From: Ostrea edulis
Lineage: Eukaryota
Direction of reading: 5' to 3'
Length of the DNA: 64,000 nucleotides
Assembly: GCF_947568905.1 (NCBI RefSeq)
Contig: NC_079173.1
Span: 37,262,001-37,326,000, forward strand
Shown here: positions 4,305-54,051 of the stretch, one piece after another
Position numbering within the stretch: position 1 is the stretch's first letter
How the letters are laid out: every line of letters begins with the position of its first letter
Notes under the pieces: generated by a model
Databases searched by the model: none
Told to the model about the DNA's origin: nothing
What the model saw: only the letters and a program-made list of their open reading frames with translations
Position numbers and translations under genes: made by a program

Positions 4305-4543
4305 GATACCATGATTACAAAAATTCCACCACCCATTTATTAGATATGATATTGTTCAAAATGATGGTCATTATACATTGAATACCTTAAATTGATACCA
4401 ATTCTATACTTTGCCACCCGCTTACGCGGCTTATGCATTTTTCTGCAATGCTAGCTACTTTACAACTGAAAGAACGACAACTCTATATTGATGAGTTGAT
4501 TTTTCTACCTTTTCTCACTAGAGATCGCTGCAATGAAAATGAA

Positions 4544-31564: not shown

Positions 31565-32240
31565 GGTCACGGTAGCTAAGTGGTAGAACATTCACTTCGC
31601 AACCGGGAGGTCGTGAGTTCGAGCCCCTCTTGTGCCATGGCCACGTCTAACCCATGATGTTAAAATAGGTAGTGATTGCTCATTCGCCAAACGCTCGGCA
31701 TTTAGAAGTCAGAATCACTGGTCTTTCGTATATCACCTTGGAAACGGATGTCCTGTGTCATGGTCACGGTAGCTAAGTGGTAGAACATTCACTTCGCAAC
31801 CGGGAGGTCGTGAGTTCGAGCCCCTCTTGTGCCATGGCCGCGTCTAACCCATGATGTTAAAATAGGTAGTGACTGCTCATTCGCAAAACGCTCGGCATTT
31901 AGAAGTCAGAACCACTGGTCTTTCGTATATCACCTTGGAAACGGATGTCCTGTGTCATGGTCACGGTAGCTAAGTGGTAGAACATTCACTTCGCAACCGG
32001 GAGGTCGTGAGTTCGAGTCCCTCTTGTGCCATGGCCGCGTCTAACCCATGACGTTAAAATAGGTAGTGATTGCTCATTCGCCAAACGTTCGGCATTTAGA
32101 AGTCAGAATCACTGGTCTTTCGTATATCACCTTGGAAACGGATGTCCTGTGTCATGGCAGGCGTTGGCACGATACAGACCCCCCCCCCCACCCCCCCACC
32201 CCCCCTTGCTACGACCCTGAGTGCTACGCATAGGTCTAAA
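31565..32240 (+). mobile_element. tRNA-derived SINE whose 5' 197 bp is tandemly triplicated
   Basis: Units start at 31565, 31762 and 31959, each with TAGCTAAGTGG A-box and GAGTTCGAG(C/T)CC B-box; a single 3' tail follows unit 3. Confidence 0.85.
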
Positions 32241-35084
32241 TAAAACTTAACTCGAAGTTTCGACTTAAAATTGTATCAACAAGTCCTGGCCTGATATACA
32301 AATTTTATATATAACACGAAACAAAAATATAATTCGATGACAATTGCTGCGAGTCTAATTTGCAACATAAATGCCAATTTTTAAAGTCAGTAGTAAACGG
32401 CAGTGGACTTGATGCTTTTACTAAATTGACCCATTCCTTTCCCACCTTCAGAAACGATGCTACGGGACTGTACATACATTCCCAGCATTTCATGATAGAG
32501 ATATGGTCGTTACAATGATCTAGATTGCCAATACAACCTATCATTGGATTAAATGCTGTCTGATGGCCGTTCTTTACACAATTACTGTGACTATGGTTTA
32601 TTCCGTTAACCTGATCAAGATATAGGGCTCAATGGCAAATGTAATCGGTCGACAGGGGATGTTTACTCCTCTTAGGCACCTGATCCCACTTTGATATATC
32701 TGCCCGGGTGTTGCTAAAACGCGGATCGAAAAACGGAACGGAAAATATTTTATGCAATAATGTTATGTTCCTCATAACATTATTGCATAAAATATTTTCC
32801 GTTCCGTTTTGTAAAATCAAAAGGCTTATTATGAACAAGGGAAGCAGAAATTACAAGAGAACAGGAAGTCATACTCAGAATCCACCATTTCGTATTAATG
32901 CCTCATTCTAATGCATTATTGTGAATTTAAAAACGGTGGATTTTGTGGGTGAATGTACCAGCAGACGCTTGCTTAATATTTGGCATAGTAAGTTTTAATA
33001 AAAATATTAAGCAAGCGCCTGTTGGTACCAGCCTTTTCCCCGGCTTTGTCACTCACACCCAACCCCCAGATTGTGACAGTATGTTGCTTCACAAATGAAA
33101 AAGAAAGATAAAGATGCTGAAAAAGACTTGAATTATAATAGAACCCTTTCAAATTATATTACTTTATTCTGGCTGCTAACTTAGAAAAGATTTTATAAGC
33201 CTACCCAATGAATAAAAGGTACACCCCCCCCCCCCCCCCCCGAAAATAACAGTGTAAAGATGAAATAATTTTTTGAACAATTTCCTCCAAACATAGCCTT
33301 TTTAATTTTTTAATTTAAATCGAACGTGATTTTAGTCGAACTAGAGTGTTTAAGATAACTGAATTTGAATTTAGTTCTACACGTACCTGGTACAGTATAC
33401 ATTTATGTATCACATCAAATTTAAAGCGAACGAGTTCATTGTAGAAAAAAGGTTTGTCTCATTTGGGATGATTCTATGTGAAAGTTCGTACATTTACCGA
33501 TATCCTGTGGATTAGTGTTGAAACTGAAGAGATGCATGTACAGGGGGATGGAAAGATTTAAACAGAACCATGAAAACTAGGGTGAAGTTTACTACCCATA
33601 GTAAGAGGAATCAACAGATTTATTTCATAATATATGAAATAGCTAAAAGGCTAACACAGAATGTATGGTTGAATGGAATTAAAAGTCATCTCATTATTAA
33701 TCTAAATGTTAAGATAATGATGCAAGTATTTAGTTTAGAAATGAACTGCCAGAAGTCCTCCTTATTTAGGATTGGAGTGCTGCGGTCACCAAGTCTCAGT
33801 TAAAAAAATTGATAAATCAAACACAAGATGTTTAACTTATTGACTTAATAAGATCAAAAGTTATCGTTGTTAGTAGTATAGTAAGCTGTATGGGGGGGGG
33901 GGGGGGGGGGGGGGGGTAAACAATAGACCTATTGTTCTCGAGAACAATAGAAGGGGTCATATTACAACCTTGACCTACTTAAGGACAATAGATGGATGAC
34001 GTCATAGGCTAAGAATAGCTGGAAAAAACCCATGTCTATTGTTATCGAGAACAATAGAAAGGGAGTGGAATCGAAGATCAAAGGGATAGTATAGGGGGGG
34101 GGGGGTAAACAATAGAGCTATTATTCTCAAATAACAAAGGACCCGAGTCTGAAAATTCCGAGTGAATAAGGGTATACGAGCGGGATCGAAGATCAAAGGG
34201 ATTGTATGGGGGGGGGGGGGGGTAAACAATAAAGCTATTGTTCTCAAATAATAAAGGACCCGAGTCTGGAAATTCCGAGTGAATAAGGGATACGGAAAAA
34301 CCTGACACGGTCTGTGTAAAATTCCGGTAACGTTAAACCAAAATCATGCGAGTAGTGTATTGGTAGAATTTCATTATGAATTTTAATCAGAATATGTAGT
34401 TCCATAACAAAGGATGCGAGTCTGGACTTTCCGAGTCAGTAAGGATATACGGAAAACCCTGACACGGTCATTGTAAAATTCAATGAGGTGTTGTTAAATT
34501 ATGCGAGTGGCGTATTTGCAATGGTAAACATAATTATGGTAAAACGATGAACGGAGTTACGATAAAGTGCATGCCATTGTTCACGGGATGACAAAAGCTT
34601 TCAATCCTGTAAAACGAATGCGTGCAGTGACACCGAGAAAATAATTTTATTCCTCGTTAGATCATCGATGGAGAGGGTCGTATCAGATAATCCAAGTGAC
34701 TCCGAGTGAAGAAACTTAACACTTATTTTACTTTAATGCATCGATGGATATACCTGTATCTAACAGAAAGTATTCTCATTCCGATGAACATAAGAAATAA
34801 AAAACAAGTACATTTTTTCATTAATTTTGTATTCAAGTTAAGGTATAAATAAAGTCCCATGCCGATTACACTCATGATTTGGATCTGAAAAGAAAAAGTT
34901 TTTATTTTCAAAATAATATTACTATGGAGTGACAAGTTTTTTTTTAATTGCATCTAATCAACGAAGAGATCCCACCTGTATTTATGAGATAAATTCAATC
35001 CAAGTGATTGCGAGTGAAGAAACTTTAAACTTATTTCACCTGTATGCATCATTGGATATACCTGTATTTTACAAAAGAAAACCC

Positions 35085-37500
35085 ATTTATTCATTCAATC
35101 TTTATTTCCCCCTTGCGGAGATTTCATGTTGTAACATTTACATATATTTAGAATACAGATAGATAGAAAATGATAACAAAGAAAACGTATGTACATGGAT
35201 AAATGTTTACATAACTACGCTTTTAGTTGTACTCTAAGTTTTGCGACAAGGCTCTATTATAGCACGCGGTGGCTCCACACACAAATTTTGCACAAAGACA
35301 AATAAATTATTTTTTGCTCTCTTTCTCTAATAATATTGTGGGTTCTACTCCTCCAAGTAATATAAAATATCTTCACTGAGCTGCGAAAGCTTTACATATA
35401 AATGGACATCGAAATTATTAATTAGGTTGTCAAAGAAAGATTCCCTTATGCAAGTTGTGGATGGACACCCCAACACAGCATGTTGATACTGGTTGTCGTA
35501 CGTCTCCTGACACACTCTGCAGGTTTGGCCTAAAGAAACAGGTGGAATGGTCCAGAGTTTAGCTAGGAATCTAATGAGTGGAACTTCATCGAATGAAAAG
35601 TCAAATTTCCAGAGTTTAATAGGAGAGATTATGTTGTGGAAATTTTTAAATATTCGGAAGTCTGGATCGGCTTCCATGCGATTTCTCCATTCCTCCGTAT
35701 GTTGGTGATGAATCGACTGTTTAACTATATATTTCCAATCTTTTTTTTCCAGGGAATTGATTAACTTCAACAAATGATTGTAAATATTGTAGTAAGTTGT
35801 ATTTGATTAAAATTTCGTATATATCTTTTAGAAATCCAGAAAATTGTTTGATGTCACCCTGTAAAAGATCATATAATCTAAATAAGAAAATGTTCTTTGA
35901 CAGAGAGTTAGTGTCAAGTTTACACAGCTTTCCAAAAAATGCTAATTTTCTTTTGTCTATTTCCGAAATGATGGGATGTAATCCAATCATGCTCTCACAC
36001 ATATCCGATCTTGTTGAAATTTTCATGCCTTGAATATCCTTTGTCACAAAATATTGAAATTTGTTTAAAATTTGGAAATCTGTTTGTTTTAGATTGTTCC
36101 ACAGTTCACATCCATACAATACGGTAGGTAATACTATTTCCCGGTAGAGTTTAACAAGAGTTAAAGGGTTTGTGTTATGAGACAAATCATTCCGTATTGT
36201 AAAGTAAGCCTTCCTGCCTTTGTTACAGCTGTCCGTTGTCCGGTCAATGGCTTTGAATCGAGAATGTTGAATAATACCCAAATGTTTGTAACTATCATTG
36301 ATCAAGATTTCATCATCACCTAATTTCCAAGTTTGCTGTGTTGGGGGTCTAACTATGCTAGACGTTTGAGCGTTAAAAGAAAAGCGCCATAAACATGAAT
36401 ACTTAAATGCAACGTTTAACATTTTTTGTAAGCTAGCTGGACTTGAACTTAAGCATGCAATGTCGTCAGCTAATGTCGGGTTTGTTGACTTTACATTGTA
36501 CACACCGAAATTACTGCTTACACTTTCTAAGCAATTCAATAAATCATTAAGGAAAACACAATATAAAAATCCAGACAATACACCGACTTGTCGAACACCT
36601 TGCTTAATTTCAAACCATTGAGACATGGTACCATTTACAGCCACTGTACTTTCATTACCGATATGACAGTCATCTATTATTTTCCATATCTTACCATTTA
36701 ACCCCAATTTATAAAGTTTTACCATGAGAGCTTTTCTCCAGACTGTGTCATAAGCTTTCTTACTATCTAAAAATGCAACATACACAGAACTACCGTGATC
36801 AATGTAATGACTTATTGTCTCTTGTAAATTAAAACTTGCGGTAATGCAACTCAGATCCTTCTGAAACCCTTGCTGCTGGGGATTCGGGAATCTAATTTCA
36901 CTAATTATTGCATCCGAAATTCTATTATGTAGTATTTTCTCAAATACCTTTAATGGGCATGACAATAAGGATACTGGTCGGTAACTATCAGGGGAGTTTT
37001 TAATCTTATTGTCTTCTTTGTATATAGGGACAATTATACCTTTTTTCCATTCAGTGGGAATCATTCCGCATTTGATGATTCCACAAAATAATTTGCATAG
37101 ATAAAAAGTGATTTTATGTCCACCATATTTTAGATGTTCCGCTTGGATACCATCAATACCCGGTGCTTTGCGCAATTTAAGGGAGTTAACAGCTTGGTTG
37201 ACCTCCGACTCGGAAATTTCATACTCGAGGCGTTTATCGCATTCGTTTTCAGATTTGATAATATCATACAATTTAGTGATGTTTTGCAAGTTTTCCTCGT
37301 CGTAGTTGCTGTTGTTTTTAGGAGCATATATAATTTCAAAGTATGTTGCAAATACATCAGCTACACTTTGAGGGGTATTTGCAGTTATACTACCGTACTC
37401 AATTTCCGGATATACCCTGCTTTACCAAATTTATTTCATTCAGTGAATGAAATTCCTCTCAAAGATGTATTTCTATCATGCACAAAATTTAATTAAATGA
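35085..37500 (-). mobile_element. 5'-truncated non-LTR retrotransposon (RT plus C-terminal Zn-finger-like region)
   Basis: RT ORF below; 3' end AAATAAAGATTGAATGAAT at ~35085-35105; no endonuclease domain seen upstream. Confidence 0.85.
35345..37289 (-). CDS. LINE reverse transcriptase, frameshifted in an A run near 35740
   Basis: KAPGIDG, YRPVSLLS, FLDSKKAYD, GVRQVGVLS, LADD motifs; C-terminal CRVC..H..GC in the second frame. Confidence 0.85.
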
Positions 37501-40500
37501 AGATTTTGCAAAAACCTATGACATCACATGAGGATCGATCAACCTTAATGGTATGAATAGTGAAAATCTGATTTACCATAGTTAAGATTTCCTTCATTAT
37601 CGTTCAAAGAATATACCTATATCCTTTGATTAACTTTTCAAATACTTTAAAATGTTGATTTACTATAATAAAACTGCGGTTGACTCTGGACAGTGAAATG
37701 TTGAAACGTTTGATTTGTTATAGCACATGTACAATTAGACAATGATTGACTATAGTTAAAACTTTGAGACTTGAGTTAGCTGTAGTTGAAAAATGATATC
37801 GTAATTAATTTTTATTTAATAAAAATTTAGAAATTTTGATTTCCAAGATTATAAAATCTTTGACGACAATTTTATTTCTACTGAAAACATTTGACCTTTG
37901 ATTAATGAAAGTAAGAACCTTAATTTTCTAGAGAAGAAATGGTTTGTGTAGAGAAAGTCTTGATTTAACTATAGCACAAAAAAAGATTTATCATCGTAAA
38001 AGTTTTGCGAATACTTGTAAAAACTAAGTTAACTACAACATACTGTACTGTAGATATATCGGATTAAAACTAGTAAACCTGCATTTCTCAAAGTAAGTTC
38101 ATGTACTTTGTTTGGTATCTTAAAATGTGTGTATACTGTCCCGAAAGTTTGATTTATTTTAGATAAACTTTGATAGTCTGATCTAATATACATCACAGTA
38201 AAATGCCGATGTTTTCGTAAAGAGTTTCTTTTCAAACTTTATTTAAAAAAAGAAGAAAATTATGTATAATAAAATGATATTTACGATGATCAAAATATTT
38301 AGATCAGTAAACACTTTGTTCAGTGTTGTAAAACTTTGATTCAACTTATATCATACAACTTTGATAGTTTGGTACTTTGATACAATGCTTCTTAAAAGAA
38401 CCTTGGTAAATTTCAACAGAAAATATCCATTATTGCTTACAAAATTAGGGGGGGAAACACTTTCAATCACTAAAAAGTTCATATGCGCGGGTATGTTAAG
38501 GCAGAGTATACCCCATTTACATATAAATTGCAAAGTCTTTGAAACCTGTTCTTGATAAAAGGAGTAAGCTACTTCACCTTTTAAAACTATTTTGAGTGTT
38601 TATGTGAGAACGTTTTGTATTCTAACAAGGTGACAAGTATGTGCCTCGGTATGATGTCATCACATGATTGTTGTAAATAAATTACGAAGGTACCTTGATA
38701 GAAGATGAATAAAAATACAACACAACCCCAGGCTTTAAACATCGATTTACCGTAAAAGATCAGAAGTTTCTCGAAAGTACTGCTAGAATCCTGCTTTCAG
38801 TAAGAAATAATAATAAAACATCTTAACACTATACCATCTCTGTTTCTTTTACCCCGATGATGTTTTCTTTGAAATATTTTCTAGCGGTAATTTCTGTGTA
38901 CGTTAGTTTCACTGATCGTTTTCTTCACCTTTATTACCTTTCACTCGGTGTATAAAAAGACTTTAAAAGTATGTGGCGCAGTGTTATACTTTTGCAGTTT
39001 TCTTTCGGTCAATGCTAAATGGAATATTTCTTCCATTGGACGCATTGTCACTGAATGAAATTAACACACCTTCGTCATGTTTATTGATTTTCAGTGTTTC
39101 ACGTATATATCCCGTTACATATATCTTAAATACTCCATATTTTGTCAATATATGCATGACACAATGAACATTAGTGTTTACGTGCTTCATCGTCACTTGA
39201 TTGATTGTTTGTGTATTGTTTGATGTATAGTTATGACATAACCATTTTGATTTTATATTAATCAGACGTAGGTTACATGAAGGAAATAAAACATCCTCCG
39301 CTATTCCTTCGATCGCTAAATGGTTTATTTACAAGAACATAAAATTCGAATTAGACCGAGATATACATATACTTTGTGATATGCTTATTGCTATTATGAC
39401 ATCACATTGTCCATTTCCACCCATCCGAGTTTTTTAATGACTTGCCTTAACGTATCCGCGTAAAACAAATGACGACGGGAGCTATGAACTACTTGATATT
39501 TTATACACGTTCGTCTTCCCTTTGTTTTTGTCTAAACTTTTCCATAATGTAAACAATGCAAAGCTGAGGTACTCTCGTGTAAACTGATTTACTATAGTAA
39601 AAGCAAACGTTGATTTACCATAGTGAAAAGACGAAGTGCAGTTCTTGCTTGTTTGGAATATATGATATTGATTAAATTAAATTCTGCATCTTAGGCTATG
39701 GAACTGGTCTTTGTTTCGTTTATTATAACGGGATGCATTTTCATGTTGATTTGGAATACTATCACTTAAATAGTTCGGGGCGCTACCATTGTAATTTTTG
39801 AACATGACAGTCAACTTTACACATTGTAGTCAATTTTGCGATATAAGTCCACTTTGTAAAGTTTACCAGCCTGTTTCTGAACAAAGGAATTCTCTAGATG
39901 CAAAAATAGAAAGACCAGTAACAACTCTACCTGCAGATATTTGTACCTTTTCACTCTTGCCAGTATCGTAAACAGCCACCCCAAACAATTGAAGCATATT
40001 TAAGAGTAGGTCTAATAAATGCTATGTACATTTTGACAGATGTTTTCTACCAATTTTGAATTTGAGCTTTTTTTAAAAGCCCTATTTTGAAGAACTTTGT
40101 TTACTATGAAATCAATGCCAACTGAGGTTATATGATAATGATAAACCCAAATGACGATGGACCGGAACACACTTCCGTACCTTTCTTTGAAAGATAAACA
40201 ACTTTAGTATTGGATGGATTGAAGTTGAGTAACCACTTATCTGCCTGTTTCGAATACATGTAAACCATGGTTAATCTTAAAATCAATATCCAAAATATTA
40301 TATGAGGATTGCTGAAGTGAATTATCATCAGCACATAGTCTACACTTACATCAACACCATTAACATAGATTAAAAACAGTAAAGGTCCTAAGACAGAACT
40401 TTGAGTTACACCAGCAAATATATCAAATTTTGACAATAAAAGGTGTATACATATTACTTTTTGTGATCTGTGGCATGAGTAACTTTTAAACCACTATGAA

Positions 40501-42967
40501 TTATTGCCAGATACACCATAAGTTTGTAATTTAAAAATATTCTATCAAGTGCTTTTGAAAGGTCACAGGATATCATACCATGATTTTTTTTCTTCGTCAA
40601 TACGGTGTACGATACTACAACTCGCATGATACGTTTCTAATAATTCATAAACGGTAAAATATCCTGGTCAGAATTCGGCTTCATATCGATGAAATAAATC
40701 ATTACTATGAAAATAATTTTGTACATGTTTTGAAAACGATTATCTCCATAATTTTACTAATGCATGATAACAGCAAGACATGTCTATAATTAGATACTAT
40801 CGATGGGTCTTCCTTTACAAAAAGAGCAATGACATGAACAATATTCCTAAAAGATAGGAACATATCTTCTGACAATGTCCTATTGAAAAGCATAGAAGGA
40901 ACGGTGCATTTAGTTGATTTCAACATCTCATGACTATTACAATCTGGGTCAGAAGCTTTATTGACTACAAGTATTGTAATGATATCTACTAATTCTTGTT
41001 CGTCAATAAAAATGTTACTTAGAGAGCCACTAATTAAACTGTACGTATTTGGTAGTGTTTCGTTGGTGTCATCATTTGTGGAAATGGACGAGAAGCACGC
41101 ATTCAAAACTTCCATTTAGTCAATATCAGAATACATTGTTATCATCAATATGTATTGGATATATTTCATTTGATAATTTCATATCAAATGAGTTTTTCAT
41201 CAACCTTCAATGTAACTCACTGTTGCCTTCCTTTGCTTGAATTCGTCTAAGTAGGTTTCAATACTATCGTAATAATTGAATATCGCATGGTATTTCCATA
41301 TTATTAACCAAAATGCGAAATTTTCTATAAGAGTCGTCTTTCGTTTATAACGAAAAGGTGAAGATAACGACCAGTGATCAATTTCATAACTTCCATCAGG
41401 AATATAAAATTAAGAGTTGGGCACGCACGTACGACCCCACCCCCACCCCCACCCACCTGGATACACCAGTGGATGGTATCAGGTGCCGAGGAGGAGTAAG
41501 CATCTCTCTTCGACCGATTACACCCACCGTGAACCCTATCTCTTGATCAGGTAAACAGAGTAACCCGTAATCAAAATCAGTAATAATGCTTTGTTGCAAA
41601 GTCGATTTCTCATTCTGATGGGTTTTTTCACAATGTATCATCGAGTCATGCCATGGATTTTCTCGCGGACAAACTGTTATGGTTTGTTTAGGTACACATT
41701 CACGAACTCTTGAAAGATTTTCGGATCTGACATTTTCTGTTGCCAATTCTAAAGTATCTGCTCCGTTGATGATGTTCACCCAATTACAATTTTCGATTGA
41801 TAAAGTCATTGATTTTCATAAACACATACTGTACGGTGTATGCGCGATTGTAATTTATATTCGAAATAAGCGAGATAATCGCTAATCGAGGATTCTATTC
41901 TCAACCGCTTCACACGATTGAATGTCTGTAGAGTTCAGTATTGGGTTTAGCAGTACTCGATTCCGTGTAGCGTCAGTTATATTGTTTACTAAATTGTGTA
42001 TGGAAACAATTTCACGGACATTGTGTGATAGTGGAGCATTAAGGAAATGTACATTTAAATCGTCTTCTATGTTTATTTTGTCAGATTATATGCAAACTTT
42101 ATCTAAACTCCATGAAAGTTTGATCCAAAAAGGGCTGTCGAAACTCGGAGGTCTGTAGACACGGCAAAGATCATAATTACAGGTGCAGTTTTCTATTTTA
42201 ATCCATATACATTCAAGATCGGCGGACTCAAATTCTGGGCGTCTTATAGCGCGTATTTAATTTGACATATACAGCAAGACATAGAGCTCACGGCGGGTGT
42301 GACCGGTCGACAGGGGATGCTTACTCCTCCTAGGCACCTGATCACACCGCTGGTATGTCCCAGGGTCCGTGTTTGCCCGACTCTTTATTTTGTATTCCTT
42401 GCGGGAGTTACGATTTCCATCACTGATCGTTATCTTCGCCTATCATAACACCGCCTACAAAACAATTTCTGTATTCACAGATTATATCATTAAAGTCATC
42501 AATAAGTAAGCTATCGTTGCTCACGGAATTATCTAGATGGATTTCAGTAAAACATAAAATATCGAAGACATGAACAAGAACATTTAAATGACCTGATTGG
42601 TGTCTAATGCTTATGATATTCATATGCAAAATGTCAAGGACATTTTCAATAGTACGACCCGGATTCATTTCTATATCGCTGCCAACTAACAAAAGGAAAT
42701 GTGAAACAAAAAATGAAAGTAAGACTTGATAAATACAGATTTAAGCTTAATGAATTTCACACAGTGAGTGTAATGTATTTGAATAATCCGGATATTGTCA
42801 GGTTGACCATACGTGTTCTATTTTTAGTGTTATGTTTTAGAACGGAATAAAAACGAGTTGATATCACGGCATGGCTATATGTTGGTGTTTGGACTAGGTG
42901 TCCGTTATATTAATGTCTGTAGAAGACATTTCATGGTGTCAGAAGAAAACTTTGACGTACCAAAACA

Positions 42968-45886
42968 ATGGATCAGTTAAAACCGCCGTCGCACTTAAGT
43001 TTTGAAGGGAATTCAGCTGAAAATTGGAAAGAGTGGCTGCAAGGATTTCGCCTATATTTGGTAGCCTCGGGGATCGACGAAAAGGCGGGAAAAGTGAAGG
43101 TTGCTACCTTTTTACATGTTGCTGGTGTCGAAGCGAGACGTATTTACAACACATTCAACATTCCTGAGGAGGATGCTGAAAAACTAGAGGTAGTGTTCAA
43201 AAACTTTCAAGACTACGTTGAACCACGTAAGAACTTAACGTATGTACGCCATTTATTTTTCACACGAAATCAAGAAAGTCATGAAACAATCGATAATTAT
43301 GTCACTGACTTAAAAAACAAAGCCATACAATGCGAGTTTGGTGATTTGAAAGACTCGTTGATTAAAGACAGGATAGTGTGTGGTATTTCGAGTGAAGCAT
43401 GCAGAGCCAGGCTACTACGGGAAGCAGATTTATCATTAACTAAGTGTTTAGACATTTGCCGTGCTTCTGAAGTTTCCGAACAGCAATTGAAAAGTTTACA
43501 CAAAGAACCATCAACTGCTGTAGCTGTTCATGTTGTAACTAGAAAACCTGAAAAACTACAGAACCGCGGTAGTACCAGAAAACAAACAGCTCACGTTCAC
43601 TCAAACACTAACAAACTGAATGCGTGTAGTAAGTGTGGAAAACAACATGAGAAAGGGAAATGTTTTGCGTACAACAAGAATTGTTACAAATGCAAAGGCC
43701 GTAACCATTTTGCAAAATACTGTAATAAGACACCAAAATCTGTGCATTACGTGGAAGAGGAATCACATGACCTATACTTGGGCATAGTGAATGTGGACAC
43801 TATTCAGGAAGAGGTACCATGGACTGAGACAGTGAACATTAACAAAGTACCGGTTACATTCAAGCTGGACACAGGAGCTCAGGCGAATATAATACCAAGG
43901 AATGTGTTCAAAGAACTACACATCTCTCCGAAGCATTTACGAAAAGTAAAAGTGAACCTGTACACTTACAATGGTGAAGTCATGAACCCAGATGGGAAGA
44001 TTGATATCAGATGCCGAATCCGTAAAGTGGAACGTACACTTCCGTTTTACATCACTGCAAAAGGAAGTACACCGATACTTGGCAAAGAATCATGTGCACG
44101 CCTAGGATTAATCCAACACATACCAGCAGATTCCATAGAAAGTGCGGATGTTTGTGTAACAAAGGACAAACTACTGCAACAGTATCAGGATGTTTTCAGT
44201 GGACTAGGACATCTACCAGGAAAATATCACATTGAAATTGATCCGAATTCAACGCCAGTGATACACCCACCAAGGAAAGTGCCGGCAGCGTTACACAGTT
44301 CTGTACGTGATGAACTTCAACGCATGGAAAAATTGGGCGTGATCGCAAAACAGGATGGTCCTACGGATTGGGTTCACAGTATGGTAACAGTACGGAAACC
44401 AGGGAAAATTCGTATATGCTTGGATCCAAAAGACTTGAATCCGCACATAAAGCGAGAACATTACCACTTAGTAACTGTGGAGGAAATCATTGAACGACTA
44501 CCAAATGCTAAAGTGTTCTCAAGATTTGATGCTACGCATGGTTTTTGGCATATTGAACTAGACGAAGCAAGTTCAAAGGCACTCACTTTTAACACACCAT
44601 TTGGTAGATACCGATATCTACGACTTCCGTTTGGAAAAACTTCAGCGTCAGAAGTGTTCTCGAAACGATTACAGGAGTTTTTTAAAGACTTACCTGGTGT
44701 TGAGTGTCTAGTAGACGATATCCTTGTTCATGGAGAAAACGTCTCGGAGCATGATGAAAATCTCGTTCGTATGCTGGAGCGATGTCGTCAAATTGGGCTC
44801 AAGCTCAATAAGGATAAAGTAGAACTCAGAGTACCTGAAGTGAAATACGTTGGTCACGTCATAGGGAGAGATGGACTCAAGGTTGATCCGGAAAAGGTTC
44901 GTGCTATTGTAAACATGCCAGAACCGACAGATGTTCAAAGTGTGCGCCGATTTCTTGGACTAGTGCAATATGTGTCGAAATTCATACCAAACCTAGCAGA
45001 GATTTCTGAACCTCTCCGATTGCTTACGAAAAGTGACGTTTTGTGGCACTGGGACAAACAGCAAATTGACAGTTTTGCGAAACTAAAAAACTTATTAACG
45101 CAAGCACCAGTTCTTCGCATTTATGATCTTCAAAAGGAAGTCACCATTTCTGTGGATGCAAGTTCCAAAGGATTGGGTGCAGTATTATTGCAGAACGGAC
45201 AGCCCGTCGCATACGCTTCACGAGCACTGACAGAGACTCAGCAGAGGTATGCACAGATAGAACGAGAGATGCTCGCAGTTATCTATGGATGTGAAAAATT
45301 TCACCACTACATCCATGGACGTTCAGTTACCATAGAAACAGATCACAAACCTTTGCTAGCGATTCATCGCAAACCACTATATCAAGCTACTCATAGACTA
45401 CAGAGGATGCTTATGCGTTTACAACGTTACGACGTTACTTTAGAATACGTTCCGGGAAAGGAAATGTTCATTTCCGATGCGTTAAGCAGGGCTTACTTAC
45501 AAGAGTGTACAGAATCACTGGTTGATGAGGACATAGACATCAATTTCATTGAGCAGGAGCTTCCTATGACGGAAGGAAAACTTCAGGAGCTGAAGGACGC
45601 AACTGAGTCTGATGAACAGTTTCAGGCATTGGCCGACATAGTGCGACTGGGATGGCCAGAATCTCGGGTACAAGTTCCAGCAGATATAAGAATATTTTGG
45701 AACTACAGAGATGAAATAACAGTTCTAAATGGTTTACTGTACAAGGGGCCAGCAGTGATGATTCCCAAGTTACTACGTCACCAAATGTTGAGGAAGTTAC
45801 ATGAACCTCACCTGGGTATAGTCAAAACCAAGCAGAGAGCCAGAAATATCATATTTTGGCCAAACATGAACTATGACTTAGAGTAG
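42968..45886 (+). CDS. Gypsy Gag-Pol: Gag, Zn-knuckle region, protease, RT, RNase H
   Basis: 972-aa ORF; CYKCKGRNHFAKYC, LDTGA, LVDDI, DASSKGLG, TDHKPL; ends at an in-frame TAG inside the integrase Zn finger. Confidence 0.95.
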   Translation: MDQLKPPSHLSFEGNSAENWKEWLQGFRLYLVASGIDEKAGKVKVATFLHVAGVEARRIYNTFNIPEEDAEKLEVVFKNFQDYVEPRKNLTYVRHLFFTRNQESHETIDNYVTDLKNKAIQCEFGDLKDSLIKDRIVCGISSEACRARLLREADLSLTKCLDICRASEVSEQQLKSLHKEPSTAVAVHVVTRKPEKLQNRGSTRKQTAHVHSNTNKLNACSKCGKQHEKGKCFAYNKNCYKCKGRNHFAKYCNKTPKSVHYVEEESHDLYLGIVNVDTIQEEVPWTETVNINKVPVTFKLDTGAQANIIPRNVFKELHISPKHLRKVKVNLYTYNGEVMNPDGKIDIRCRIRKVERTLPFYITAKGSTPILGKESCARLGLIQHIPADSIESADVCVTKDKLLQQYQDVFSGLGHLPGKYHIEIDPNSTPVIHPPRKVPAALHSSVRDELQRMEKLGVIAKQDGPTDWVHSMVTVRKPGKIRICLDPKDLNPHIKREHYHLVTVEEIIERLPNAKVFSRFDATHGFWHIELDEASSKALTFNTPFGRYRYLRLPFGKTSASEVFSKRLQEFFKDLPGVECLVDDILVHGENVSEHDENLVRMLERCRQIGLKLNKDKVELRVPEVKYVGHVIGRDGLKVDPEKVRAIVNMPEPTDVQSVRRFLGLVQYVSKFIPNLAEISEPLRLLTKSDVLWHWDKQQIDSFAKLKNLLTQAPVLRIYDLQKEVTISVDASSKGLGAVLLQNGQPVAYASRALTETQQRYAQIEREMLAVIYGCEKFHHYIHGRSVTIETDHKPLLAIHRKPLYQATHRLQRMLMRLQRYDVTLEYVPGKEMFISDALSRAYLQECTESLVDEDIDINFIEQELPMTEGKLQELKDATESDEQFQALADIVRLGWPESRVQVPADIRIFWNYRDEITVLNGLLYKGPAVMIPKLLRHQMLRKLHEPHLGIVKTKQRARNIIFWPNMNYDLE

Positions 45887-46686
45887 TTGATTAAGTCGTG
45901 TGGAGTGTGCAACTCATTTCGCAAATCAAACACAAAGCAATCACTCATACCTCATGAGATACCCTCTACTCCTTGGACCAAAGTTGGAGCTGATATATTT
46001 CATTTCAAGGGCAAAGACTATGTGTTGTTTGTGGACTATTACTCGAAATATTCAGAGATTATACCTCTACCAAATTTGAGAGCATGTTCCACTATTGCTG
46101 CGTGCAAAACAGTGTTTTCAAGACAAGGCATACCCTTAGAGCTATTCTCGGACAACGGACCACAATTCAGTTGTCATGAATTCAAACAGTTTGCATCTGA
46201 ATGGGAGTTCACGCACAAAACCTCCAGTCCCCACTATCCACGTTCAAATGGTCAAGCGGAACGCTGTATTCAAACCGTAAAAAAAACTTACTGAAAAAGG
46301 CAGAAGAGAGTAATGGTGACCCAAATATTGCTCTTCTGGAATACAGAAACTCGCCTATTGATGGAGTTGACCTGTCGCCTGCACAGTTATTAATGAACAG
46401 GACTCTTCGTTCAAAACTACCAACAACCAAAGTGTGGTTGGAACCAAATTCACTGACGTCTCCACAATCCAAACTTCAACTTAGGCAGATGAAACAGAAA
46501 TATTTCCATGACCGAAAGTGTGCAAAATTAACGCATGTTGAGGATAAAGAAGTTATCCGTATACAGAATCCAGACAATCGTCAGTGGGAACCAGCTGTAG
46601 TTCAAAAGGACTTCGGAAACCGTTCGTACAACGTTTTAAATCAGCAAGGGAACACAGTAAGAAGAAACAGGAGTCAGATAATTTGA
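45887..46686 (+). CDS. Gypsy integrase remainder (frameshift in an A run at ~46279-46286)
   Basis: CGVC, ADIF, SDNGPQF, SNGQAERCIQ, then LLEYRNSP and RRNR in the next frame. Confidence 0.9.
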
Positions 46687-48646
46687 AAATAAGTGGCTGT
46701 AATCATTGAAAATGTTTACTGCTAAAGGTTTAACTACTAGTACATGTATTTCTAAAGATTTGAAATATATTAATTTGGTCTCATGACAAAATGCACATGA
46801 GCTTGGAATATAAGTATTAAGCGAAAGGGTATGAAAGAAAAAAACCAAACAAAAACACAAATAGTACAACAGATCAAATGAGTACGTCCTGTACTACCAT
46901 GGTAGTAATGCAATTTAAGATTATAAAGCAAATGAATGCATGCAGATAACTGGAAAGCAATTGCAAATAGTCATATAATAACGCGAGTCAGGTGAGTATG
47001 CACACAACTCTTCAAGAAATAATATTTGAATGATGCAAGTAAATTTGAACGGAGGATCAATAGATAAAGGGTAGTAGGACAGTGCGTACAAGAGAGTTGA
47101 GTTTCCTCATTCATCAAATGTGTTGAGGAAAAGATATGCATGGCGATGGAAAGAAAAAGAAGCATATATACAGAATAAAGAGTGCATGCATGTAAATGAT
47201 TGTATACAGGCGGTTGAAGTGAACAAGAAACTGCATGAGGGATATAATCAAATAAACAATTTTTGACATAATAAAGTTCAAAGTAAGTAATGTTCAGAAC
47301 AGTTTAAATGATGACATCTTAAGGAATATTTCCAACAAAGGGTCAGGTACGGCTCAGGGTAGATAACATGCACTTTGTCAGATTTGTCACGTTCACGGAT
47401 TTTATCGTTAGTTGATCAGGTGGGGATGTTTAGTAAGGTCCTCGTTAAAGAAGACAGTCCTCGATTCGCGTTTGTTTTTCAACTTGCTATAACTTTTCAC
47501 CAAGCGGAAACTTTACGTCGACACTTTGAAGCCTGGTTATGAACTGACGTAGACCTGCATTACGCTTGTTCGGATCATCGACTTTGTGTGAGTTTATGAT
47601 TTCGTCTGGGTGTAACTCTTCTTTCCTGTTATGTTCAGGATAAGTGAGGCAGTATCCTCGCCCTGCTCTTCAGCTACTACCGTGGCGCGAACTCTGACCA
47701 CACTGTTCCATCTCGTCAATTTGTTGGAACAGTTTATAGTTTTCCGTTTCTACATGTTGATGAATCTTCTCCTTCAAGGGTTGAAACACCAAAGTTTACT
47801 TCGATCGACACAAGTGTCGATGTGTCGTTGTGCAGCGACTGCTTTACAGATGTCGCTATTCTAAGGACGTCCTCATCCGATATAACTACCTGGCGAGAAG
47901 TAAATATGTATTTAGTGTTGCTTGCTGGCCAAAGGTTGGGTTTTCATACGGTATACTTGAGAAACGGGGTAGATTCATCAGCAGGAATGATAGGGAGTTG
48001 CACGACAACGTTGTCAGCATTTTTATCCATTGGTGGACAGTGTGGGCTTGGTTTTTCTCTCTGTGTGTTCTGTAGGGGTCCGTACAACGTCTGAGAATGA
48101 TCGCAATAAATCACTCAAAATCCTTTTGTTTTTTGTTGTTGTTATCACCCATGATGTTAGTACATGTTGAAGTTAGATTAAAATCTTTCTTCAAGTTTAC
48201 AAATACTTTAGGTACCTCTACTGGAGAATCGAAGGTCCTGTATCTGTCAGCATCGTTTCATCTCCTGAGCCCCACGATAAAAATGAATAAATGTATGGAC
48301 AAAACAAAGAAATTGTGTTTTCATGGATACCCGGTTCATCGAAGGACCCCGGAGGGCTCCCGCGGAGTCTAAAGGTTTCCGGAACCCCTGCCATCTGGAG
48401 TCTAAATATTTCCGGATCCCTGGCATCCGGTGTTCGAAGGTTTCCGTTGACATTTGATTCCGGAGTCGGAAGGTTCCGGAAACTTCATAGAGCCGATCGA
48501 TTGATTAAAAAAAAATATATCAGGTATTGTTGATAAACATGCATTGGAAAAACATTTTGAAAGATTCATTGTGTGTATTATTCCTAGAAACAAAAATGCT
48601 GGGAAAATCCAATGACGTCATTAGAGAACCTATATTGTGGGTCAAC

Positions 48647-50713
48647 TTCGCAAAACTTTTACGATGATAAATCTTTTTTTGTGCTATAGTTAAATCAAAA
48701 CTTTCTCTACACAAACCATTTCTTCTCTAGAAAATTAAGGTTCTTACTTTCATTAATCAAAGGTCGAATGTTTTCAATAGAAATAGAATTGTCGTCAAAG
48801 ATTTTATAATCTTGGAAATCAAAATTTCTAAATTTTTTATTAAATAAAATTAATTACGATATCATTTTTCAACTACAGCTAACTCAAGTCTCAAAGTTTT
48901 AACTATAGTCAATCATTGTCTAATTGTACATGTGCTATAACAAATCAAACGTTTCAACATTTCACTGTCCAGAGTCAACCGCAGTTTTATTATAGTAAAT
49001 CAACATTTTAAAGTATTTGAAAAGTTAATCAAAGGATATAGGTATATTCTTTGAACGATAATGAAGGAAATCTTAACTATGGTAAATCAGATTTTCACTA
49101 TTCATACCATTAAGGTTGATCGATCCTCATGTGATGTCATAGGTTTTTGCAAAATCTTCATTTAATTAAATTTTGTGCATGATAGAAATATATCTTTGAG
49201 AGGAATTTTATTCACTGAATAAAATAAATTTGGTAAAGCAGGGTATATCCAGAAATTGAGTACGGTAGTATAATTGCAAATACCCCTCAAAGTGTAGCTG
49301 ATGTATTTGCAACATACTATGAAATTATATATGCTCCTAAAAACAACAGCAACTACGACGAGGAAAACTTGCAAAACATCACTAAATTATATGATATCAT
49401 CAAATCTGAAAACGAATGCGATAAACGCCTCGAGTACGAAATTTCCGAGTCGGAGGTAAACCAAGCTGTTAACTCCCTTGAATTGCGCAAAGCACCGGGT
49501 ATTTCTTTTTATTAGCGGAGAATCTTTTTGTAAAATACAGGTATATCCAATGATGCATAAAGGTGAAATAAGTTTCAGGTTTCTTCACTCGCAGTCACTT
49601 GGATTGAATTTATCTCATAAATACAGGTGGAATCTCTTTGTTGATTAGATGCAATTAAAAAAAACTTGTCACTCCATAGTAATATTATTTTGAAAATAAA
49701 AACTTTTTCTTTTCAGATCCAAATCATGAGTGTAATCGGCATGGGGCTTTATTTATATCTTAACTTGAATACAAAATTAATGAAAAAATGTACTTGGTTT
49801 TTTTTATTTCTTATGTTCATCGGAATGAGAATATTTTCTGTTAGATACAGGTATATCCATCGATGCATTAAAGTAAAATAAGTGTCAAGTTTCTTCACTC
49901 GGAGTCACTTGGATTATCTGATACGACCCTCTCCATCGATGATCTAACGAGGAATAAAATTATTTTCTCGGTGTCACTGCACGCATTCGTTTTACAGGAT
50001 TGAAAGCTTTTGTCATCCCGTGAACAATGGCATGCACTTTATTGTAACTCCGTTCATCGTTTTACCATAATTATGTTTACCATTGCAAATACGCCACTCG
50101 CATAATTTAACAACACCTCATTGAATTTTACAATGACCGTGTCAGGTTTTTCCGTATATCCTTATTGACTCGGAAAGTCCAGACTCGCATCCTTTGTTAT
50201 GGAACTACATATTCTGATTAAAATTCATAATGAAATTCTACCAATACACTACTCGCATGATTTTGGTTTAACGTTACCGGAATTTTACACAGACCGTGTC
50301 AGGTTTTTCCGTATCCCTTATTCACTCGGAATTTCCAGACTCGGGTCCTTTGTTATTTGAGAACAATAGCTTTATTGTTTACCCCCCTATACAATCCCTT
50401 TGATCTTCGATCCCGCTCGTATACCCTTATTCACTCGGAATTTCCAGATTCGGGTCCTTTGTTATTTAAGAATAATAGCTCTTTTGTTTACCCCCCCCCC
50501 CCATACTATCCCTTTGATCTTCGATCCCACTCCCTTTCTATTGTTCTCGATACCAATAGACATGGGTTTTTCCAGCTATTTTTAGCCTATGACGTCATCC
50601 ATCTATTGTCCTTAAGTAGGTCAAGGTTGTAATATGACCCCTTCTATTGTTCTCGAGAACAATAGGTCTATTGTTACCCCCCCCCCCCCCCCCATACAGC
50701 CTACTATACTACT
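48647..50713 (-). repeat. Right inverted arm (2.07 kb; lacks ~2.08 kb of the LINE)
   Basis: Reverse-complement match to the left arm, roughly 97% in segments compared by eye; LINE breaks off after ..AAAGCACCGGGT at 49500. Confidence 0.9.
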
Positions 50714-52276
50714 GTTGTTTTATACATATCACACTCCCTGTTGTAAGCACACACATACACAGTATTTTGTGTAAATACATGTACATGTGCGTTAATGACG
50801 TTTTGCCACAGGGGCATACAAACCACATGTATTCTTTTCATTCTCTACCCAAAGGTGTGACTGCTCACTAACACCTCTGTCAATGCCGAAATTTCAAAAT
50901 TTTTGTAAAAGGCTTTGTAAATTCTTATACAAACGTTTAACTTAATTCGCTTAATCAATTTATGATGCAAAATTTAAAGATAAAGTTGTTTTATAGCTTG
51001 TATACAATTCCCAAAGTGTTGATTTTAATCAAAATGATTGATTTCCCCCCGATTTTTTGGCATTATCTCATCTACATTAATCATTCTAATTTTTTAATTC
51101 CGTTCCGTTCCGTGTTTTAGCGACACCCTGTTTGCCCAACTCTATTTTGTATTGCTTATAGGAGTTATGCAATTGATATATTTTCTCCCTCAGTGCCATC
51201 GTCCGAAAATAAATATTTTCTCGACTATTTGATAATAAAACAAAACAGAAAAAGTGAATAGGTTGGTTGCGTTCGTTACAAGATCGCTTTTAATAAGCAA
51301 ACATCAAATCAACAAAGCTGAAAAATCATTAATTCAAAACTGAAAATGGGCTGGGTGGGAGGGAAGGCTAAGGCACAGAAATACAAAAGTTACCTTTGTT
51401 GCTTGTAACGAACCTCGCACTGCCCGAACACTGACCAGTAGTAGTATATATACTGGGCTCGTGCATGAGTTCAAAAACCCGCGAAATGTATTTACGGAAA
51501 ATAACGAAAACTGACGAAATGTAAAACGTAAAGAAATAAATTATTGTTCGTTATCTTCATCTTTCATATATTTAATACTTGTGTTATGTTTTGTTTAGAC
51601 TGAATATATTTGGAACTGTAAAAGAGACAGTGTGCCTTTTCGGTTTTATTTTATCATTGAGTAAATAACCGGGGAACTCATAGGGAAAATACATGTGAAT
51701 ATTGTCACCAGAAGTCACCAAAATTAGTACAAATTTGCTTCTTTTTTTTAAATAACACTCAGAGGTTTGCTATGGGATATGTAGATACGGTTCATTCTAA
51801 GATTGGTTTGTGTGTGTATGCGCGTGCAAGATGGCGAGTATTACGTATTTTGTTTTTCTTACTATTGTTCAGAAACTATTTATGATGGCATTATGAAACT
51901 TGTACAATGATAAACTATAGTCCGTAGATCTCACAGGAAGTAATATAGGATTAAAGAATCTTTTTGACGAATTTATCAATGTGTAAACTCTGACATTTTA
52001 CTAGGGAAATCTTTTAAAAACCCTCTGAAAAACAGCAGGGCTGGTGATTCGTGTGAGCATTGTGTCCCATGACCTTGTTGTGTATATAACTTGAAATGTT
52101 CTTTCATTTTTAAACCCTGAAAAATGAAATGTAAGCATTACAGAACTAGTATATTCTACAATACATTTAGACATACAGTTGTAAATTCATAGAATGATTC
52201 AGATTTGTTAGCATGATAACCCCAAAGTCATGATGGGAAAATCAAACTTCACATAACAACCTCTTATTTCTTACAG

Positions 52277-52438
52277 TGTTAATGGTCAAAACTCATGATT
52301 TGAGAGATCCACCTTCCAAACAGGAGAAAACATGGATAGAGAACAAAATAACTTCGTATTGGAATGGAACTTCTCTGTGAAAGTGCTGGATCCTATTTTA
52401 CACCGAAGGTTGCAGGGATTGCATGCTTGAGATAAGAG
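52277..52438 (+). other. Candidate 162-nt phase 1-1 exon with one in-frame TGA and a CxxC motif
   Basis: CTTATTTCTTACAG acceptor, GAG|GTAATT donor; LMVKTHDLRDPPSKQEKTWIENKITSYWNGTSL*KCWILFYTEGCRDCMLEIR; no partner exons identified. Confidence 0.35.
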
Positions 52439-54051
52439 GTAATTGATATTTGTATTGAAGGTTGCAGGGATTGCATGCTTGAGATAAGAGGTAATTGATA
52501 TTTGTATTGAAGGTTGCAGGGATTGCATGCTTGAGATAAGAGGTAATTGATATTTGTATTGAAGGTTGCAGGGATTGCATGCTTGAGATAAGAGGTAATT
52601 GATATTTGTATTGAAGGTTGCAGGGATTGCATGCTTGAGATAAGAGGTAATTGATATTTGTATTGAAGGTTGCAGGGATTGCATGCTTGAGATAAGAGGT
52701 AATTGATATTTGTATTGAAGGTTGCAGGGATTGCATGCTTGAGATAAGAGGTAATTGATATTTGTATTGAAGGTTGCAGGGATTGCATGCTTGAGATAAG
52801 AGGTAATTGATATTTGTATTGAAGGTTGCAGGGATTGCATGCTTGAGATAAGGGGTAATTGATATTTGTATTGAAGGTTGCAGGGATTGCATGCTTGAGA
52901 TAAGGGGTAATTGATATTTGTATTGAAGGTTGCAGGGATTGCATGCTTGAGATAAGAGGTAATTGATATTTGTATTGAAGGTTGCAGGGATTGCATGCTT
53001 GAGATAAGAGGTAACTGATATTTGTATTGAAGGTTGCAGGGATTGCATGCTTGAGATAAGGGGTAATTGATATTTGTATTGAAGGTTGCAGGGATTGCAT
53101 GCTTGAGATCAGAGGTAATTGATATTTGTATTGAAGGTTGCAGGGATTGCATGCTTGAGATCAGAGGTAATTGATATTTGTATTGAAGGTTGCAGGGATT
53201 GCATGCTTGAGATAAGAGGTAATTGATATTTGTATTGAAGGTTGCAGGGATTGCATGCTTGAGATAAGGGGTAACTGATATTTGTATTGAAGGTTGCAGG
53301 GATTGCATGCTTGAGATAAGGGGTAACTGATATTTGTATTGAAGGTTGCAGGGATTGCATGCTTGAGATAAGAGGTAATTGATATTTGTATTGAAGGTTG
53401 CAGGGATTGCATGCTTGAGATAAGGGGTAACTGATATTTGTATTGAAGGTTGCAGGGATTGCATGCTTGTGTATTGAAGGTTGCAGGGATTGCATGCTTG
53501 AGATAAGGGGTAATTTATATTTGTATTGAAGGTTGCAGGGATTGCATGCTTGAGATAAGAGGTAATTGATATTTGTATTGAAGGTTGCAGGGATTGCATG
53601 CTTGAGATAAGGGGTAATTGATATTTGTATTGAAGGTTGCAGGGATTGCATGCTTGAGATAAGAGGTAACTGATATTTGTATTGAAGGTTGCAGGGATTG
53701 CATGCTTGAGATCAGAGGTAATTGATATTTGTATTGAAGGTTGCAGGGATTGCATGCTTGAGATCAGAGGTAATTGATATTTGTATTGAAGGTTGCAGGG
53801 ATTGCATGCTTGAGATAAGAGGTAATTGATATTTGTATTGAAGGTTGCAGGGATTGCATGCTTGAGATAAGAGGTAATTGATATTTGTATTGAAGGTTGC
53901 AGGGATTGCATGCTTGAGATAAGGGGTAATTGATATTTGTATTGAAGGTTGCAGGGATTGCATGCTTGAGATAAGAGGTAACTGATATTTGTATTGAAGG
54001 TTGCAGGGATTGCATGCTTGAGATAAGGGGTAATTGATATTTGTATTGAAG
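52405..54051. repeat. 52-bp minisatellite, about 31 copies
   Basis: GAAGGTTGCAGGGATTGCATGCTTGAGATAAGAGGTAATTGATATTTGTATT; highly homogeneous, one shortened unit near 53465. Confidence 0.97.

Follow-up and report, generated by a model that had tools for sequence, protein, structure and literature searches.

A LINE copied between the inverted arms of a Maverick-ended palindrome in Ostrea edulis

Described systems and how the locus compares

Galileo transposons (Marzo et al. 2013, PMC3573991) include copies with "2 recombinant TIR" and chimeric copies, for which TIR-templated break repair has been proposed, and the same paper, citing a review, mentions inverted-repeat expansion in Polintons. Maverick/Polinton elements (PMC8097293; 10.1101/2023.08.22.554363) are described as having (AGT)2//(ACT)2 ends, a 6-bp target-site duplication (TSD) and a length of ~17 kb. 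In sex-chromosome palindromes (PMC3723533) a new mutation in one inverted arm is copied to the other, in tracts several kb long, and butterfly polintons (10.1101/2025.02.07.637071) are polB-less, carry LINE or Gypsy cargo and have ~2-kb gene-bearing TIRs.

The element analysed here lies in a 64,000-nucleotide stretch of the Ostrea edulis genome, which we call the window. It resembles Galileo (PMC3573991) in being non-autonomous, with long, internally repetitive TIRs that recruit inverted internal sequence, and, as among Galileo chimeras, some copies of its family lack a TSD. Galileo, however, belongs to the P superfamily, moves by cut-and-paste, makes a 7-bp TSD and has TIRs of at most about 1.3 kb, whereas the present family has Maverick-type ends, a 6-bp TSD and arms of up to 9.4 kb that include debris of host retro- and DNA transposons. 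No P-type transposase was found among the frames scanned in the element. The mechanism we favor is like Galileo TIR extension; the element itself is not a Galileo/Foldback member.

With Mavericks the element shares the end motif, the TSD and a length near 17 kb, and relatives with the same terminus carry decayed polB. Unlike Mavericks it has no core gene, and its arms measure 4.1 kb (up to 9.4 kb in relatives), as against the 46-1,447 bp given for intact vertebrate elements. Arm-to-arm conversion of mutations is common to this family and to sex-chromosome (Y) palindromes, but the arms of the latter are host segmental duplications, far longer and >99.9% alike (PMC3723533), whereas these are invertebrate transposon arms in which a heterology, the LINE, was copied in part only. 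Long TIRs duplicating internal content, retroelement cargo and the loss of polB recall butterfly polintons; those retain virus genes and occur as polymorphic mobile insertions, and the available portions of their description contain neither a LINE in both arms nor arm conversion.

The closest known parallels are Galileo TIR extension and Y-palindrome conversion. In the partly accessible literature we found nothing on giant palindromic non-autonomous Mavericks or on conversion between their arms. Non-autonomous Polintons and TIR length were reportedly discussed by Kapitonov and Jurka in 2006, and the novelty of such palindromes in print is uncertain.

The element and its doubled LINE

The features of the element (33872-50713, 16.8 kb) are collected in Table 1. 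Both the (AGT)2//(ACT)2 motif, as AGTAGT..ACTACT ends at 33872 and 50713, and the 6-bp TSD of Mavericks are present; when pairs are drawn at random from the window, 0.04% of them show identical 6-mers, which is the chance level for such a duplication.

Table 1. Coordinates of the features of the palindromic element within the window
Feature	Position	Strand	Remarks
Target-site duplication, left copy GTTGTT	33866..33871	.	matches right copy
Left outer arm: Maverick-type terminus AGTAGTATAG, G-runs, 117-bp and ~155-bp internal repeats	33872..34974	+	
Internal repeat unit of the arm, second copy	34975..35083	+	84% to 34689-34768
5'-truncated LINE, (GAAT)n tail at 35084, RT frame 35721-37421	35084..37423	-	RVT_1
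Kolobok-type MITE end, last 125 nt	37424..37548	+	counterpart 49110-49234 in right arm
Left inner arm, family sequence	37549..38011	+	colinear with LINE-free relative G000:C4:93.945M
Spacer, 10.6 kb	38012..48646	+	5.5 kb of it colinear with the C4 relative
Gypsy LTR retrotransposon	42769..46674	+	gag-pol 976 aa, integrase broken
Turn-round point	48647..48649	.	3-nt microhomology TTC
Right inner arm, family sequence and MITE end	48647..49234	-	
LINE piece in right arm, 269 nt, 5'-most part of the same insertion	49235..49503	+	
Native arm sequence, 22 nt	49504..49525	-	in register with the arm's internal repeat
Right outer arm with Maverick-type terminus	49526..50713	-	
Target-site duplication, right copy GTTGTT	50714..50719	.	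matches left copy

The left outer arm (33872-34974) is shared with the rest of the family at 87-94% identity. The repeat copy that follows it (34975-35083) is, in the assembly, confined to the present insertion and lacks about 20 nt that the right arm retains. The outer inverted blocks (33872-35076 and 50713-49526) are 96.1% identical with 24 substitutions, and the inner ones (37155-38011 and 49503-48647) 98.0% identical with 15; these counts are from BLAST, the 20 inner differences given by MAFFT being inflated by a misaligned indel. At 48647 the colinear family sequence stops and an inverted copy of 38011 onward starts. The spacer also carries a dispersed repeat (~38486-39460), decayed LINE fragments, SINE-like repeats and the Gypsy element, which replaces 158 nt of family sequence and is missing from the other family members fetched; a search for its second LTR found none.

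Genes for a protein-primed polB, retroviral-like integrase, capsid, ATPase and protease are absent from the element by tblastn and Pfam. tblastn with 126 frames from resident elements matched the Gypsy integrase only, and Pfam on 8 frames of the element returned LINE and Gypsy domains only. A tblastn match at ~39680-40088 was discarded, its query being a LINE frame in the flank of a Maverick. Comparison by tblastx of three spacer parts with four loci holding polB or Maverick remnants gave no coding match, only a SINE-like repeat, and Rfam gave zero matches over 30000-52000. Among 20 sampled polB-bearing ends no autonomous partner with the same terminal repeat was found, similarity ending after 9 nt, and no intact Maverick frame was found within 10 kb inward of 14 further termini.

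Decayed polB (28-50% identity) was detected in 4 of the 35 fetched relatives or terminus loci (L170, L180, C8:28.23M and C7:84.78M). The polB-bearing remnant at L180 is 82% identical to the spacer of a palindrome on C2, and the window copy turns round about 1 kb short of the position of an L180-like remnant. By these remnants the family descends from a Maverick lineage, the link being indirect for the window copy. At least 77 polB loci are present in the genome (77 of 259 candidates scored), and most of them have open frames. Five resident Mavericks have terminal repeats of 103-388 bp, and a 6-bp TSD was present in all five whose right end was found (6 tried). Because the first 9 nt of the element are those of resident polB-bearing Mavericks and its insertion is marked by a 6-bp duplication, the sequence suggests integration by a Maverick integrase acting in trans.

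The LINE in the left arm contains an RVT_1 domain (E 1e-23) in a frame of 566 aa stop to stop, 522 aa from TTG and 447 aa from the first Met. A preliminary description had recognized this LINE, at 2.4 kb, and its 522-aa frame. Genomic relatives, 92-96% identical, match 35084-37423 only (2.34 kb). For this reason the mirrored LINE in the right arm, which does begin at the same 5' junction, is 269 nt and not ~350 bp long, the next 125 nt being the end of a MITE. The full form of this MITE, assigned by the Kolobok signature (PMC9587614), is 565-670 bp with GG..CC ends flanked by TTAA on both sides, and its remainder is missing where the LINE sits. The LINE has no TSD; it occupies the place of most of a MITE. 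LINE-free arms were found in other family members, a check that the preliminary description had proposed and that turned out in favor of its single insertion. The C4 relative is not usable as an empty LINE site, since its arm differs between 34798 and 37589.

The stretch between the right-arm LINE piece and the outer arm, formerly taken as ~23 unassigned nt, is 22 nt of native arm sequence that the left arm has lost. Where the internal repeat of the arm continues, these 22 nt align with it in register, with equal or better scores in 55 of 10,000 shuffles and 15 of ~10,000 random 45-mers from the window; a local test without anchoring gave a weaker result (360 of 10,000). No exact second copy was found in the genome search or the loci compared. 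In sequencing run X3 a contig has these 22 nt on an arm that does not run on into the LINE 3' end, and this arm also has the left arm's derived base at 34971. The repeat register and the different continuation in X3 rule out untemplated filler. The X3 arm further suggests that the arms already differed when the LINE arrived, on the evidence of one 390-nt contig (30 of its 229 loose letters read, and compared outside 35331-37154) with one informative base, which may belong to a sister insertion.

The 5' truncation point of the LINE is identical in both arms, and one LINE base common to both occurs in 0 of 10 other LINE copies. Because junction and private base are shared, the data support the earlier proposal of a single LINE insertion later copied to the other arm, and independent insertions are ruled out. 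The 8 LINE differences between the arms comprise 4 derived changes on each (269 nt). LINE and non-LINE parts are about equally similar between arms, as had been noted (8/269 vs. 31/1772, Fisher p 0.23), and outer and inner parts have diverged to a similar degree (24/1185 and 15/856, p 0.74). A flat profile in the window copy is also expected from one pre-integration copy-back. Divergence has no resolution for dating the LINE against the arm or for ordering the events: the private divergence of the LINE (1.6%) matches the age of the arm copy, for which each arm gives 4 derived changes over 269 nt.

Palindromic relatives and exchange between their arms

Five other family regions were fetched, representing four independent insertions, and all are near-perfect palindromes with arms of 3.9-9.4 kb. 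The five independent insertions (window, C7, C8, C2 and C5) turn round at five different junctions, and in this small sample from one genome no junction is the same at two independent sites, the one junction seen twice belonging to a chromosomal duplication on C2. Microhomology at the junction is 3 nt in the window copy and C7 and 8-13 nt in C2; C8 and C5 have 10-11-nt fillers instead. A TSD is present in 3 of the 5 independent insertions in which both termini were seen and lacking in 2.

One is easily led to take identical Maverick ends, or cargo shared by the two ends, for a trace of virus-like replication or for a clock of insertion age. The C2 copies provide a natural control. G000:C2:19.388M and C2:19.452M are one insertion within a tandem duplication, with the same TSD and flanks of 8.6 and 9.9 kb that are 98.4-98.6% identical. 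In a four-way alignment of ~5.6 kb, by-copy pairing of the arms is seen at 17 sites and by-side pairing at 1 (binomial p 1.4e-4), a count that homogenization by the assembler could inflate; derived bases occur in both copies (7 and 10), and the by-copy sites are interspersed with 17-20 single-arm differences. Since pairing is by copy at all but one of these sites, arms of this family exchange sequence after integration. The C2 arms were re-homogenized in the chromosome, and therefore arm identity alone neither dates such elements nor proves extrachromosomal replication. Maverick remnants can seed self-maintaining palindromes of 10-20 kb in an invertebrate genome.

Homogenization is uneven along the arms of other copies. 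In C8:57.88M the outer 1.6 kb holds 40 substitutions and the 5.5 kb that follow are free of them; in C7:64.56M, with an intact TSD, 13 fall within 0.66 kb and 4 within 2.95 kb. In such steps most of the outer-end differences are private to one arm. The termini are the least homogenized part in 3 of the 4 other copies tested (C7, C8 and C5), with the same trend in C2b (p 0.06), a pattern that later conversion of the inner part could also yield.

How the right arm may have acquired the LINE

The probable explanation is that 269 nt of LINE were copied into the right arm by chromosomal conversion or break repair with the left arm as template. The LINE inserted a single time, on this reading into the left arm of an element with Maverick ends but no Maverick genes. 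A double-strand break in the right part of the chromosomal element would then have been repaired from its inner side, synthesis running along the left arm through family sequence, the MITE end and 269 nt of LINE before aborting and joining the outer right end at a microhomology (2-nt exact, 6-of-7 imperfect). The join would adjoin the point where the LINE ends arm-to-arm homology. The right-arm break does lie 5-7 nt from the LINE's 3' junction, or insertion point (chance about 1.1%), as aborted arm-to-arm repair predicts. We infer break repair in the window copy beside the exchange seen directly in other members. Similar templated repair, ending at microhomologies or short fillers, is likely to have made or lengthened the giant arms of other copies. 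Chromosomal conversion, though it occurs, leaves the first making of the arms unexplained, and extrachromosomal copy-back may have given rise to them.

Adenovirus and phi29, which are protein-primed replicons, generate copy-back palindromes, and adenovirus repairs its ITRs. The preliminary description had read the doubled LINE as a footprint of extrachromosomal replication through a panhandle. In such an account, which we consider unlikely, an excised LINE-bearing element was copied back by a helper's protein-primed polymerase, which switched template from 48649 to 38011 and copied to the element's own left end; the palindrome then integrated, and a microhomology-mediated deletion later took 2.08 kb from the right arm. 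As in adenovirus/phi29 copy-back, a colinear left part is followed by its own left end in inverted orientation: a one-ended relative is colinear with left arm and spacer, to which the inverted copy that forms the right arm is joined at a 3-nt microhomology. Divergence flat at about 2%, the intact TSD, the many polB loci that could serve as helpers, and the recurrence of such a build with differing turn-round points at all five independent insertions also fit, and C3:66.88M has similar, older arms. Against it, the deletion must have ended next to the LINE junction by coincidence (about 1%), a reversion at 34971 is required, no junction recurs at independent sites, and exchange between arms takes place in the chromosome. 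Adenovirus end repair should moreover leave the termini most alike, and in other copies of the family they are, or tend to be, the least homogenized part, which later conversion of inner parts may also explain.

It is likewise doubtful that the family as a whole consists of copy-back defective Maverick-virus genomes, gene-less palindromic satellites with two left ends. Polymerase template switching, a load of host retroelements, a helper's integrase and later polishing by conversion would together, on this tentative proposal, account for their build. If true, the doubled LINE would be direct genomic evidence of defective-interfering-type Maverick replication in an animal germ line.

Improbable, by comparison, is a two-step history along the favored pathway, in which the whole LINE was converted into the right arm in the chromosome and an unrelated deletion later took 2,071 nt. 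Homogenized tracts of several kb do occur in the family, and the two ends of this deletion have an imperfect microhomology between them, but nothing in this history explains why the break lies so close to the LINE junction. Aborted repair templated by the left arm is the reading we retain.

The evidence from sequencing runs consists of assembled contigs, in which missing forks or cover in X3 or X17 do not prove absence. It is very improbable that the right arm is mis-assembled, as the preliminary description had allowed, or that the two LINE pieces inserted independently: long inverted repeats are hard to assemble and at most 52% of sampled right-arm words were found in any one run, but the element has kept its TSD, derived changes are found in each arm, and junction and private base are common to both. 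A contig of X2 spans LINE, 22-nt stretch and outer arm (49453-49559) with 0 differences. X1 and X5 each include contigs whose start coincides exactly with the turn-round point, 48647. The palindrome structure is not an assembly artefact.

Element identity and family structure

GTTGTT flanks the element on both sides, and (AGT)2//(ACT)2 ends with 6-bp duplications are the marks of Mavericks (Barreat and Katzourakis, PMC8097293). The Maverick population of the 895-Mb genome appears large and young: polB is borne by at least 77 resident loci (of 259 candidates, 77 were scored), the majority with open frames of ~1,330-1,340 aa; of six examined, five measure 20.1-20.5 kb and have TIRs of 103-388 bp and 6-bp TSDs. 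Identity between these and the window element is limited to the first 9 nt, with none beyond, and neither a domain scan nor a protein-level search with resident Maverick frames found a Maverick gene in it. A search of 35 relatives or terminus loci detected decayed polB in 4, and one of these remnants matches the spacer of a palindromic family member at 82% identity. We take the element to be non-autonomous and derived from a Maverick lineage that has decayed. Its Gypsy has replaced 158 nt of the sequence typical of the family; insertion and deletion go together here, as they do for the LINE.

Features of the window element and of its relatives (bare coordinates are positions in the window, G000:C10:37262001-37326000; C-numbers are other loci of the family in genome G000)
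Feature	Position	Size	Remarks
Element	33872-50713	16,842 bp	start AGTAGTATAG, end its complement
LINE	35084-37423		limits set by other genomic copies
Gypsy	42769-46674		probable 5′ LTR and primer site; no second LTR found
Native arm stretch	49504-49525	22 nt	in-register continuation of the arm's internal repeat
Palindrome	C7:64.56M	arms 3.9 kb	
Palindrome	C8:57.88M	arms 7.6 kb	
Palindrome	C5:30.41M	arms 8.6 kb	
Palindrome	C2:19.388M	arms 9.4 kb	C2:19.452M is its duplicate
Palindrome	C3:66.88M		older arms, 92-95%
Internal terminus-like block	G000:C2:19387500-19409500 (L037-L039), region 4204-4522		also in C8:57.88M, C5:30.41M, C7:64.56M

Among 19 regions surveyed around the best family matches, six have multi-kb inverted arms and one a 0.44-kb arm; the others have no inverted arms within the stretch examined. 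Neither the window LINE nor the Gypsy occurs in any of them; arms free of this LINE were one outcome that the preliminary description proposed to look for. The window, C7, C8, C2 and C5 elements share one build: one arm plus the spacer is colinear with relatives, and the second arm repeats the first in inverted orientation from a join point private to each insertion. The joins contain microhomology of 3 nt (window, C7) or 8-13 nt (C2), or fillers of 10-11 nt (C8, C5); a TSD flanks the window, C7 and C2 elements but neither C8 nor C5. C5 bears two different terminus types.

Several members contain, ~3.6 kb inside, a terminus-like block 72-88% identical to the outer arm, as if one end had fused into another element. 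An 81-bp mini-element (L175:198-278, G000:C6:66386997) consists of two family termini and has no 6-bp duplication. Two elements of 2.47 kb (L217:672-3143 and L218:554-3019; G000:C5:57.147M and 56.932M) have AGTAGT ends and TATATA as their 6-bp duplication, with two further matches at 57.013M and 57.088M; the elements are probably segmental duplicates, as flanks are equal in both loci examined. The inner-arm sequence of a relative is broken at G000:C9:19357755-19363968 by a 6-kb array whose 40-bp unit matches window 37716-37756, a minisatellite apparently born from the window element.

The LINE in both arms

Alignment of the arms gives two blocks (33872-35076 with 50713-49526; 37155-38011 with 49503-48647), which bear out the reported presence of the LINE in both. 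Its limits leave 269 nt in the right arm rather than the ~350 described; the adjoining 125 nt represent the end of a Kolobok-type MITE (signature as in PMC9587614). The LINE lacks a TSD and occupies the site of the remainder of this MITE, which is missing. The arms differ at 8/269 positions in the LINE vs 31/1772 elsewhere (p 0.23), in agreement with the similarity noted previously, and at 24/1185 in the outer vs 15/856 in the inner part (p 0.74). The LINE 5′ junction is identical in both arms, one LINE base common to both is absent from all 10 copies compared (those of 29 other loci tried that cover the shared piece), and the 8 differences comprise 4 derived bases per arm. These observations show that, as originally proposed, a single insertion was copied between arms; the copying probably came soon after its arrival.

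A 107-nt contig from sequencing run X2 spans LINE, filler and outer arm with 0 differences. Contigs of X1 and X5 start at 48647, and one X1 contig stops at 35076, the pattern that branching of both forms at this point would give. The doubled LINE is in all likelihood no assembly error. Two points count against this view: any single run contains at most 52% of sampled words, and the assembly may itself derive from one of the runs. A 200-N gap lies at 8100-8299, after a 55-bp tandem array.

The joining stretch, previously called unassigned, has an in-register score reached by 55 of 10,000 shuffles (360 of 10,000 in an unanchored test). One 390-nt X3 contig spans 34915-35076, then the 22 nt, then ~205 other letters that match neither 35084-35330 nor the right arm (30 letters inspected); at a single position, 34971, this single contig shares the derived base of the left arm. 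Contig and repeat register argue that the stretch is native to the arm and that a loss of ~20 nt, flanked by two short A-rich direct repeats, took place in the left arm; going by that one contig, the population also contains an arm that lacks the LINE 3′ end. Only 5-7 nt separate the right-arm break, which is at imperfect microhomology, from the LINE 3′ junction; for a deletion placed at random in the 4.16-kb arm, the chance that an end comes to lie no more than 5 nt from a LINE junction is 1.1%.

Exchange between arms and origin of the partial copy

TSD and junction are common to both C2 copies, as are flanks of at least 18 kb at 98.4-98.6%, so they represent one insertion, either duplicated in the chromosome or present as two alleles assembled in tandem; the conclusion is the same either way. 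Across 1,494 + 4,140 ungapped columns of the four arms, 17 sites group arms by copy and 1 groups left with left. By-copy sites include derived bases in both copies, with 17-20 single-arm differences interspersed, showing that new mutations were copied between arms after integration.

Panhandle end repair, as in adenovirus, should leave termini most alike. The preliminary description invoked such homogenisation. In C8, C7 and C5 divergence is step-shaped and highest in the outer parts, a pattern that later conversion of inner parts could also leave: arm substitutions number 40 in the outer 1.6 kb and 0 in the next 5.5 kb of C8, and 13 in the outermost 0.66 kb of C7 against 4 in the 2.95 kb that follow, and 18 of 26 differences in C5 fall in the outer quarter, counts that, like the by-copy sites, rest on assembled sequence, in which an assembler may homogenise the middle of near-identical arms. 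C2b has the same, non-significant trend. In a tree of a 570-nt block, arms group by element in four of five cases (support 0.72-0.98; C2a unresolved), and most arm differences are private.

The doubled LINE was most likely copied by chromosomal repair between arms. In the form we think probable, a break on the right side of the element would have been mended by synthesis that started at the inner side and followed the left arm; this synthesis would have entered the LINE for the length of the shared piece and aborted, and the aborted end would have been joined to the outer right end beside the homology boundary. The break position then needs no coincidence, and the X3 arm fits. Copy-back by a helper polymerase before integration would account for the flat divergence of the window arms and for the colinear-plus-inverted build, but it needs both that coincidence and a reversion, and no turn-round junction recurs at independent sites; we regard it as unlikely. 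Still less credible is a two-step variant of chromosomal repair, with the whole LINE converted into the right arm and later deleted in part.

Related systems and other repeats

A doubled LINE alone is ordinary. For Galileo, TIR extension by recruitment of internal sequence and chimeric copies without TSDs have been described under the same repair model, and TIR expansion in Polintons is mentioned through a review (Marzo et al., PMC3573991); Y palindromes provide a known case of conversion between arms over multi-kb tracts (PMC3723533); butterflies are reported to have polintons without polB that carry LINE cargo and 2-kb TIRs (10.1101/2025.02.07.637071); chromosomal rearrangement at eri-6/7 is driven by the TIRs of Polintons (10.1101/2024.01.15.575659); and palindromic Polintons go unmentioned in passages of PMC6431247. 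Literature searches found no giant palindromic Maverick derivatives, judging by titles and abstract openings. The present family of giant Maverick-ended palindromes carries a built-in control for post-integration conversion.

Elsewhere in the window, three tandem 197-bp units with a tRNA-like head (31565-32157) look SINE-like by eye; ARAGORN calls no tRNA in them. Minisatellite arrays of 52 bp (52405-54051), 32 bp (10814-12402) and 30 bp (9293-9962) give long spurious open frames.
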